From a virus (lineage: Duplodnaviria; Caudoviricetes): a DNA stretch of 64,000 bases. The stretch covers positions 279 to 64,278 of the IMG/VR virus record IMGVR_UViG_3300033146_000616; one strand, written 5' to 3'. The notes under the pieces are model-generated. The model made no database searches. It was not told the origin of the DNA and was given only the letters and a program-made list of their open reading frames with translations. The position numbers and the translations under genes were made by a program. Below, in pieces: positions 62,136-62,957 of this stretch. Numbering within the stretch: the stretch's first letter is position 1; every line of letters starts with the position of its first letter.

Positions 62136-62957
62136 TTAGATGTCAAGTGATTCGTGAATTTTCTTTACTAATTCAACATTTAATTTATGTCCAGATAAAT
62201 GTGCTCTAATTTCTCCCACTAACGAATATTTTAATAAACTCATATCCCCTATAATATCCAATATCTTGTGGCGTACCATTTCATCTGGGAATCTTAACTC
62301 ATTGAGTGACGAATCTTTAGTCATTACTACAGCATTATCTAATGAACCACCTTTAATCAAACCTTGTGCTCTCATCTCTTCTAAATCCTTTTCAAAACAG
62401 AAAGTTCGACAAGCAACAATATTTGATAAATAAGTATCTAATGTTATTGGTGTTTTAAACGAAATATCATCAAGCATCGGATGATTGTATTTCATATGAT
62501 ATTGAATTGATAACTTCTCAGCAGGTAAAATTTCAATATAAGCATCTGTATCCGAATCTTCTACCCGTATTTTTTCTTTAACTCTTAATACCGAAGTTAG
62601 AAAAGGCAAATCCTCTAAACCAACTTTCAGAAACATCTCATAAAATTTGAGTGCTGAACCATCCATGATTGGTATCTCTGTACCATCAACTAATATATCT
62701 AATGATGTTATTCCTAACATATACACAATTGACATAAAGTGTTCGACTGTTAATATGGTTTCTTTAGAATTAGATAAGGAAGTTGCTAGATTTGTGGATA
62801 CCACATTATCAATATTAAATTCAATCCTTGAACCACAAACCCAGAAATTGATTTCATTAGACATAGATGGTCGTACTTCAACTTTAACATTCTGTCCAGT
62901 ATGAAGACCAATTCCTTCGAAATGAAATTTACGGGATATCGTTTTTGGTAACATCAT
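62136..62957 (-). CDS. lpxC: UDP-3-O-acyl-N-acetylglucosamine deacetylase
   Basis: GIGLHTG, TVEH, EIPIMDGSA, RTF, GGSLDNAVV, LRF.DE.VRHKILD.IGD, GH..N: all LpxC signatures. Confidence 0.95.
   Translation of the reverse strand: MMLPKTISRKFHFEGIGLHTGQNVKVEVRPSMSNEINFWVCGSRIEFNIDNVVSTNLATSLSNSKETILTVEHFMSIVYMLGITSLDILVDGTEIPIMDGSALKFYEMFLKVGLEDLPFLTSVLRVKEKIRVEDSDTDAYIEILPAEKLSIQYHMKYNHPMLDDISFKTPITLDTYLSNIVACRTFCFEKDLEEMRAQGLIKGGSLDNAVVMTKDSSLNELRFPDEMVRHKILDIIGDMSLLKYSLVGEIRAHLSGHKLNVELVKKIHESLDI

Follow-up and report, generated by a model that had tools for sequence, protein, structure and literature searches.

Does a tailed phage carry a working gene for the committed step of lipid A synthesis, and if so, what for? 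This question was raised by a gene on the minus strand at 62136..62957 of a viral DNA of 64,000 nucleotides (Duplodnaviria; Caudoviricetes), i.e., positions 279 to 64,278 of the IMG/VR record IMGVR_UViG_3300033146_000616; this whole stretch is referred to here as the window. It comprises nearly the whole linear virus record of 64,278 bases, which CheckV rated as 36% complete. The gene was annotated as lpxC, encoding UDP-3-O-acyl-N-acetylglucosamine deacetylase, based on its open reading frame (ORF), the families PF03331 and TIGR00325, matches in the PDB, and a structural model. LpxC is a zinc amidase (EC 3.5.1.108) that takes the acetyl group off UDP-3-O-acyl-GlcNAc; with this reaction, which is under tighter regulation than any other of the pathway, the cell commits itself to lipid A, and the enzyme has long been pursued as an antibacterial target. 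Altogether, our analysis confirmed that this LpxC is complete and its active site intact, and we infer that the gene most likely is a functional phage-encoded LpxC, i.e., an auxiliary gene of a divergent myophage of the T4 type with a diderm host.

The enzyme, its active site, and its fold

The ORF encodes 273 amino acids (aa), while a second ATG one codon in corresponds to the 272-aa form present in the protein database. Its product matched PF03331 with an E-value of 5.2e-82 and 275.8 bits (cut-off of 27) over residues 5-268, i.e., profile positions 2-267 of 268, and passed the NCBIfam equivalog model for lpxC (TIGR00325) with 237.5 bits against a cut-off of 187.25; it scored far under the cut-off of the NCBIfam model for the bifunctional LpxC/FabZ. 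In addition, 28 distinct LpxC sequences of the PDB matched at E <= 0.001, the best one with 5.6e-46. The motifs that had been pointed out in the first-pass annotation, which was made from the letters alone, namely E72-H73 (TVEH), H230-K231-I-L-D234 (HKILD), and G256-H257 (SGH), all aligned to solved enzymes, and T185-F186 and D238 are likewise kept, so that its description of a full-length LpxC with intact zinc and catalytic motifs was upheld. With residues counted in the alignment, E72 and H73 correspond to 78 and 79 of chain 29ai_A, T185 and F186 to 191 and 192, H230, K231, D234, and D238 to 238, 239, 242, and 246, and H257 to 265; this chain was matched over residues 3-274, a range identical to that of the E. 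coli entries 3p3g and 4mqy. In the E. coli enzyme, residues 79, 238, and 242 (His-His-Asp) are the zinc ligands, with H73, H230, and D234 as their counterparts, and E78 and H265 form the catalytic Glu/His pair supported by T191, K239, and D246, which correspond to E72, H257, T185, K231, and D238. All nine key residues were invariant in LpxC alignments of 16 and 7 rows; in a 42-row alignment E72, H73, T185, H230, K231, D234, D238, and H257 were invariant and F186 was found in at least 90% of the rows.

The AlphaFold model of the protein, computed with the 42-row alignment as input, reached a mean predicted local distance difference test score (pLDDT) of 96.2 and a predicted template modelling score (pTM) of 0.93. 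Solved LpxC chains matched it with template modelling (TM) scores of 0.92-0.95 and root-mean-square deviations (rmsd) of 1.4-2.0, and whole Aquifex aeolicus chains with TM scores by target of 0.93-0.95 and rmsd of 1.4-1.8. Since these whole chains were covered, neither Insert I nor the acyl-binding Insert II is missing, and the protein is thus predicted to adopt the two-domain fold of LpxC.

As had also been observed before, the protein ends shortly past the catalytic core: it stops 16 residues after H257, ending in ...ELVKKIHESLDI, and reveals neither the ending LAXXXXXAVLA nor a C-terminal tail 20 or more residues long. Compared to the solved bacterial enzymes of Aquifex aeolicus, E. coli, Yersinia, and P. 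aeruginosa, it displays the same fold, belongs to the length class of Aquifex, and has the same zinc ligands and catalytic residues. In contrast to these enzymes, its gene is viral and stands alone without lpxA, lpxD, or fabZ, the cellular LpxCs found reach no more than 44% identity to it, and it lacks the long C-terminal tail with LAXXXXXAVLA.

Viral setting and a probably exchangeable slot between gp49 and gp39

The window is a fragment of a distant T4-like myophage lineage. Annotation led to 86 called ORFs, 85 of which are located on the minus strand. The PHROGs search revealed a T4-type set of genes for replication and transcription (gp46/gp47-like nuclease, gp55 late sigma factor, UvsY, gp43 polymerase, clamp, and clamp loader) and for the virion (major head protein, prohead protease, portal, sheath, tube, and terminase), and furthermore both subunits of topoisomerase II (gp39/gp52) and endonuclease VII (gp49). 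The polymerase was at most 31.7% identical to the 20 best-covered of 2,653 matching deposited phage records, with all records below 60%, and megablast of positions 57000-64000 against deposited phages resulted in no match. LpxC, together with this virion and replication set and general knowledge of the host range of T4-like phages, makes a diderm host a reasonable inference, in line with the Gram-negative host proposed at first; tRNA genes, which were looked for as a hint on the host, were not found in the window.

The gene is indeed located between gp49 and gp39, all on the minus strand. Its upstream neighbour at 63083..63577 encodes an endonuclease VII of the T4 gp49 type (PF02945, E 5e-16; phrog_423, E 1.1e-32), and its downstream neighbour at 60092..61984 the large subunit of a DNA topoisomerase II of the T4 gp39 type (phrog_543, E 8e-175), displaying GyrB, Toprim, and HATPase domains. 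The phage-like base composition noted from the letters was also borne out, as the composition of lpxC is fully adapted to the phage: the GC content of the gene is 31.4% and that of its third codon positions (GC3) 22.6%, compared to window means of 32.1% and 22.9% (56 ORFs of at least 450 bases), and its codon-usage distance ranks 18th of 40.

A second viral contig, L013, revealed the same order of genes, namely gp49-LpxC-gp39-methyltransferase-like gene-gp52. At the protein level, the identities between the window and L013 amounted to 82% for gp49, 85% for gp39, 58% for the methyltransferase-like protein, and 71% for gp52, but to only 34% for LpxC. Comparison via blastn displayed 72% identity in the gp49 region (63858-63104), and similarity came back at 62035 into gp39 with 78%. 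The stretch in between (62036..63103, minus strand), which holds a small ORF, lpxC, and about 100 bases past lpxC, showed no DNA similarity to L013 save one 37-nt patch. Both LpxCs belong to the same clade and fill the same slot; hence, either the evolution of LpxC outpaces that of its neighbours more than 10-fold, or phages swap alleles at a conserved slot. With such different LpxC alleles in close relatives, the region between gp49 and gp39 appears to act as an exchangeable cassette. A search of IMG/VR based on gp39 yielded L013 (85%) as the only close relative, the next best match having at most 33% identity.

Further evidence came from public sequencing runs. An 8,410-base contig of run X1 spans both joints, covering 60680-62089 with 122 differences and 62158-64000 with 44 differences, and only the 68-base intergenic piece between them (62089-62158) is swapped for 73 other letters. 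This variant is closer to the window in lpxC and gp49 than in gp39, the reverse of the L013 pattern, which fits recombination. Run X2 contributed small contigs that show 0-1 differences to the window over 62860-63208. As both runs belong to one study, which is possibly the window's own source or campaign, their support is weaker than that of L013. Altogether, the locus is real phage DNA with viral genes on both sides and not a chimera.

Regarding its expression, the gap between gp49 and lpxC is filled by a Cys-rich ORF of 50 aa (CxC..C...CxxC; 62929..63081, minus strand), detected in the ORF list and the sequence, which starts one base past the gp49 stop codon and overlaps the start of lpxC by 29 nt. 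It matched no Pfam family and is missing from L013, where the ORFs for endonuclease VII and LpxC overlap directly; it could be either a small gene with coupling or no gene at all. A pattern scan for promoters resulted in 11 sites, compared to 14.0 expected from shuffles, so that only the perfect match is worth mentioning, i.e., a sigma-70-type consensus TTGACA-17-TATAAT (12/12) with the TG of an extended -10 at 62118..62146 on the minus strand. This site overlaps the lpxC stop codon, faces gp39, and lies inside the piece replaced in the X1 variant. Directly upstream of lpxC, the scan revealed no comparable promoter-like site. The gap being packed by the 50-aa ORF without a promoter directly before lpxC suggests co-transcription with gp49, perhaps with coupling.

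The region of L013 is a mosaic well beyond lpxC. It additionally harbors a gene for a NifU-like protein upstream of gp49 (4486-4854 of that contig), genes for a Mom-like protein and a Dam-type methyltransferase between gp39 and the shared methyltransferase-like gene (8497-10322), and a gene for a pyridoxal phosphate (PLP)-dependent enzyme before gp52 (11322-12263). In the window itself, the gene for the large terminase subunit appears split on the minus strand into an N-terminal piece (31804-32211, 135 aa, phrog_5989 positions 85-167) and a main ORF (28914-30644, 576 aa), separated by a 326-aa ORF (30774-31754, phrog_22677, function unassigned) and a 63-aa ORF; this arrangement (28914-32211) could reflect a mobile insertion or an intron. 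Other accessory genes of the window encode an S-adenosylmethionine-lyase-like protein (56979-57581), an RlaP-type nucleotidyltransferase (52315-53289), a DUF285 protein (12687-13163), a PAAR protein (37605-37910), and homing-endonuclease-like proteins (4793-5689 and 41268-42071). The GC content rises up to 38-40% at 8001-10000 and 16001-20000, where the major head protein and collagen-like fibre genes are located, compared to about 31% elsewhere. No Rfam family was detected anywhere in the window.

Relatives and spread of LpxC among phages

The closest relative among 5.8 billion clustered proteins was P0002, a protein of 271 aa encoded on a 7,250-base contig, with 64% identity, while the rest was at most 44% identical. 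Among the matches listed, the best cellular ones (33-44%) belonged to Campylobacterota, Acidobacteriota, Nitrospirota, Thermodesulfobacteriota, Pseudomonadota, and Halanaerobiales; in a genome collection (first 600 candidate stretches), the best matches listed were 33-40% identical and scattered across phyla. A metagenome scan using a profile of the clade described below resulted in at least 599 stretches, among whose listed matches only generic LpxCs of at most 41% identity and no new clade member occurred.

For a careful maximum-likelihood tree, 52 rows and 306 columns were analyzed under LG+C20 with posterior mean site frequencies (PMSF), without the LpxC-family gene of Vibrio phage K566. 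It revealed a clade consisting of the window protein, P0002, L013, P0009, P0010, P0122, and L012, with 99 in the ultrafast bootstrap (UFBoot) and 98 in the Shimodaira-Hasegawa-like approximate likelihood-ratio test (SH-aLRT). Inside it, the window protein groups with P0002 (100/100), P0009 with P0010, and P0122 with L012, and L013 stands on its own. The members have a length of 263-281 aa and score 421-459 bits against the clade profile, with 344 bits for P0122 and about 330 bits for generic LpxCs. They share only 34-64% identity, yet every catalytic residue is kept, and they are found on viral contigs wherever their context is readable. L011 appeared as a member in FastTree (95) but fell outside the clade in the mixture-model trees and was dropped. 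Other viral LpxCs are located elsewhere in the tree, namely L011 with L018, L014 with L016, L015, and L021, and a group of 11 IMG/VR loci (304-306 aa where complete; four of them in the careful tree) is placed near proteobacterial sequences.

Phylogeny against bacterial LpxCs, as advised in the first-pass annotation, failed to name a donor or host, as the bacterial matches of 33-44% are scattered over many phyla and the sister of the clade is unsupported (56/0). Several independent acquisitions were considered as well, since the trees display at least five viral groups, but the approximately unbiased (AU) test did not reject a single clade of all 17 viral rows (log-likelihood difference of 25.3, p-AU of 0.203); therefore, neither one nor many origins are shown.

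The gene proved to be rare in phages, as had been supposed. Neither PHROGs (no family at E <= 1e-5) nor the viral structure library BFVD (0 matches to the model at E <= 0.001) held a counterpart. Among 50,697 deposited records named as phage, tblastn resulted in seven matches, all below 60% identity: one 289-kb Salmonella genome contig, two unannotated fecal contigs, Vibrio phages K566 and K567, and two 94-kb records named Acinetobacter phage MD-2021a, in which lpxC is annotated. A scan of 2.9 million IMG/VR contigs with two patterns gave 46 pattern matches, of which 20 loci encode an LpxC, which is a lower bound; a scan of IMG/VR with the window protein alone revealed no relative. Of these 20 loci, ten representatives with 181 neighbouring ORFs were searched against Pfam, while the remaining ten have identical or closely related LpxCs, most of them with the ORF layout of a scanned locus.

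The contexts of the ten scanned loci are viral. Thus, we identified a gp59 helicase loader and cell-wall hydrolases (L006), endonuclease VII and gp39 (L013), endonuclease VII, T4 RNase H, and dUTPase (L016), RNase H, PhoH, and a late-transcription coactivator (L019), an RNA ligase amid many small ORFs (L011), the curli genes csgG/csgF (L015), and a SegE-type endonuclease (L018). L014 is situated on a 194-kb record that IMG/VR classed as a provirus; it has a gp23 capsid gene, and genes for a PIG-L protein and an epimerase lie near LpxC. L021 belongs to a record (G008) of 572,167 bases with direct terminal repeats, rated 100% complete, in which a T4-type gp23 capsid gene is located right beside an LpxC-like gene (26% identical to that of the window), accompanied by genes for a GDP-mannose dehydratase and a glycosyltransferase; it looks like a very large T4-type phage. 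Altogether, LpxC recurs, sparsely, in T4-type phages.

With K566 and K567, the matches include cultured Vibrio phages. The genome of 255 kb is of T4 size and encodes an LpxC-family protein of 268 aa (L182; OZ196521, 172021-172827, VPHK566_0314), annotated as "hypothetical protein", which is 27.5% identical to that of the window. It matched PF03331 in two stretches (E 1.3e-40) and is far more divergent than the window LpxC. The gene directly follows one annotated as PagP (lipid A acylation) and precedes a NAMPT gene; at E <= 0.01, Pfam gave no support for the PagP annotation. Since PHROGs lacks a family for LpxC and the gene of K566 goes by the label "hypothetical", caution is advised for phage annotation.

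A proposed role, its alternatives, and its meaning

On balance, we favour the reading, drawn from the sequence, that phage transcripts give rise to an active LpxC which, once the host is shut off, maintains or increases lipid A synthesis beyond the reach of host proteolysis. The gene would be co-transcribed with gp49 and upstream genes, its product would supply capacity for the committed step once host gene expression is shut off, and, as it lacks the extended C-terminus on which FtsH depends in enterobacteria, it might evade this protease. As a result, the production of lipid A and outer membrane would be kept up or raised, and the envelope would stay intact through a long latent period. In E. 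coli, the amount of LpxC, a labile bottleneck enzyme, sets the flux into lipopolysaccharide (LPS), excess LPS is toxic, and FtsH degrades LpxC, whose half-life is about 10 min in slow-growing cells; this degradation requires a C-terminal tail of 20 residues or more that ends in LAXXXXXAVLA (PMC6339880). By this standard, the window protein differs from the enterobacterial LpxCs controlled by FtsH and LapB. Pfam and PHROGs revealed no other lipid A family among the ORFs of the window, and no LpxD or FabA/FabZ family was found in five related viral records, all of them fragmentary. A gene for the committed step alone is what one usually sees when an auxiliary gene targets a bottleneck.

Several points weigh against this reading. 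FtsH control and lability are documented for E. coli only and may not apply to the host of this phage; as the degron is an E. coli feature (PMC6339880), the override of host control put forward in the first-pass annotation is weaker than stated and stays an inference. Its further suggestions, an altered receptor or inhibitor tolerance, gained no support from the present data. Short LpxCs are normal in some bacteria (275 aa in Halonatronum, 280 aa in Selenihalanaerobacter, and up to 282 aa in Aquifex chains), and other phage LpxCs are long (304-316 aa). Therefore, the short tail is no evidence of an escape from control, and regarding it as a peculiarity of the phage had to be given up. The viral context is known for three of the seven clade members (window, L012, and L013), and five residues of the clade deviate from the bacterial consensus, namely window positions 40, 42, 77, 84, and 192, which fall on columns conserved in at least 80% of 29 bacterial rows and none of which is a catalytic position. 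The LpxC-bearing viral records are, except one, fragments (17-51% complete), and the absence of other lipid A genes is therefore not proven. Finally, none of the listed runs holding the stretch is on record as RNA.

Similar logic is known from other phage genes. Cyanophage psbA/D1 and peptide deformylase are described as auxiliary genes replacing labile or rate-limiting host proteins (PMC3660681), and the phage LpxC may be analogous to them as a lone host-type bottleneck enzyme with fast turnover in a lytic T4-like phage, although its pathway would be that of outer-membrane lipid A. Marine T4-like phages, i.e., pelagimyophages and cyanomyophages, likewise carry envelope-glycan genes, often in variable regions; these are sugar-nucleotide enzymes and O-chain glycosyltransferases, in contrast to the committed step of the lipid A anchor found here (PMC7029224). 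The same source describes a curli operon in pelagimyophages (PMC7029224), comparable to the viral LpxC beside csgG/csgF at L015. The terms "lpx", "lipid A", and "deacetylase" are absent from its main text (PMC7029224).

Other explanations have to be weighed against the same data. An active LpxC could also derail the envelope, with unregulated flux pulling UDP-GlcNAc and 3-hydroxyacyl-acyl carrier protein (ACP) away from peptidoglycan and phospholipid, or with LPS and vesicles overproduced as decoys in superinfection or as weakening before lysis. LPS overproduction and stabilised LpxC harm E. coli, and the precursors are common to FabZ and peptidoglycan synthesis, according to the E. coli study (PMC6339880); moreover, lpxC is carried without the rest of the pathway and among replication genes of early or middle type. 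Since early harm to the envelope would risk the phage's own yield, and sustained synthesis fits the same data equally well, we regard derailment as unlikely. Even less probable is an LpxC-fold amidase that has turned to another N-acetylated substrate, e.g., a nucleotide sugar for a phage or host glycan. The strong divergence of the clade (at most 44% identity to any bacterial LpxC), its five departures from otherwise conserved columns, the lack of partner lipid A genes found in the phage, and the sugar-modifying neighbours at L014 (PIG-L, epimerase) and L021 (GDP-mannose dehydratase, glycosyltransferases) would fit such a change. Against this, the equivalog cut-off of TIGR00325 is exceeded, all catalytic residues, T185/F186, and the Insert II region are kept, the whole Aquifex chain is matched at TM scores of 0.93-0.95, and the five departures lie off the known catalytic positions.

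That lpxC is just a passenger without a role, recently captured and decaying or neutral, appears very improbable. It is an accessory gene, and one close relative of the phage lineage is known, but its frame is intact, clade members of 34-64% identity keep all catalytic residues, its composition is fully ameliorated, the same slot is filled in L013, and LpxC recurs in several T4-like lineages. Hardly any weight can be given to an assembly chimera or bacterial contamination joined near the contig end. The position of lpxC, 1-2 kb from the end of the 64,278-base fragment, would fit it, but the finding withstood the check on a chimeric join that the first-pass annotation had named as a refutation: phage genes flank lpxC on the same strand, L013 has the identical order, blastn similarity resumes on both flanks, the X1 contig spans both joints, and X2 contigs match 62860-63208 with 0-1 differences, even if these runs are possibly the window's own source; in addition, GC content and codon usage are phage-typical and no bacterial LpxC exceeds 44% identity.

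Sustained lipid A synthesis by a functional phage LpxC thus remains the reading that we prefer. A bolder extension of it, which we consider doubtful but worth stating, is that T4-like phages keep their own regulator-blind LpxC lineage as a swappable cassette and thereby seize the single control valve of lipid A, so that the divergence of alleles (34% compared to 82-85% in the flanks) would stem from adaptation to the lipid A chemistry or control proteins of the hosts, or from an arms race with them. If true, envelope-lipid homeostasis would be a direct target of phage takeover, and these genes would provide a naturally occurring collection of LpxCs that host regulation does not reach.

No paper describing a phage LpxC was found, though supplementary tables of auxiliary metabolic genes in virome papers, which lay outside the search, may list lpxC; the only relevant trace in the literature was Table 1 of Roux et al. 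2013 (PMC3877843). In a review of LpxC control from 2026 (PMC13333357), the word "phage" occurs 0 times. The enzyme itself is ordinary, while its carrier and its cassette-like behaviour are new, and we class the window LpxC among the viral auxiliary genes for envelope synthesis. The phage clade represents a set of compact, naturally diverse LpxC variants without the enterobacterial degron, and experiments might start from K566 and K567, the Vibrio phages in culture. A virus carrying only LpxC points to outer-membrane lipid supply as something that phages manage during infection, an idea absent from the regulation review (PMC13333357) and from the marine-phage papers examined. Altogether, the presence of LpxC in a handful of T4-like phages suggests that viruses take over the control point of lipid A synthesis during infection.

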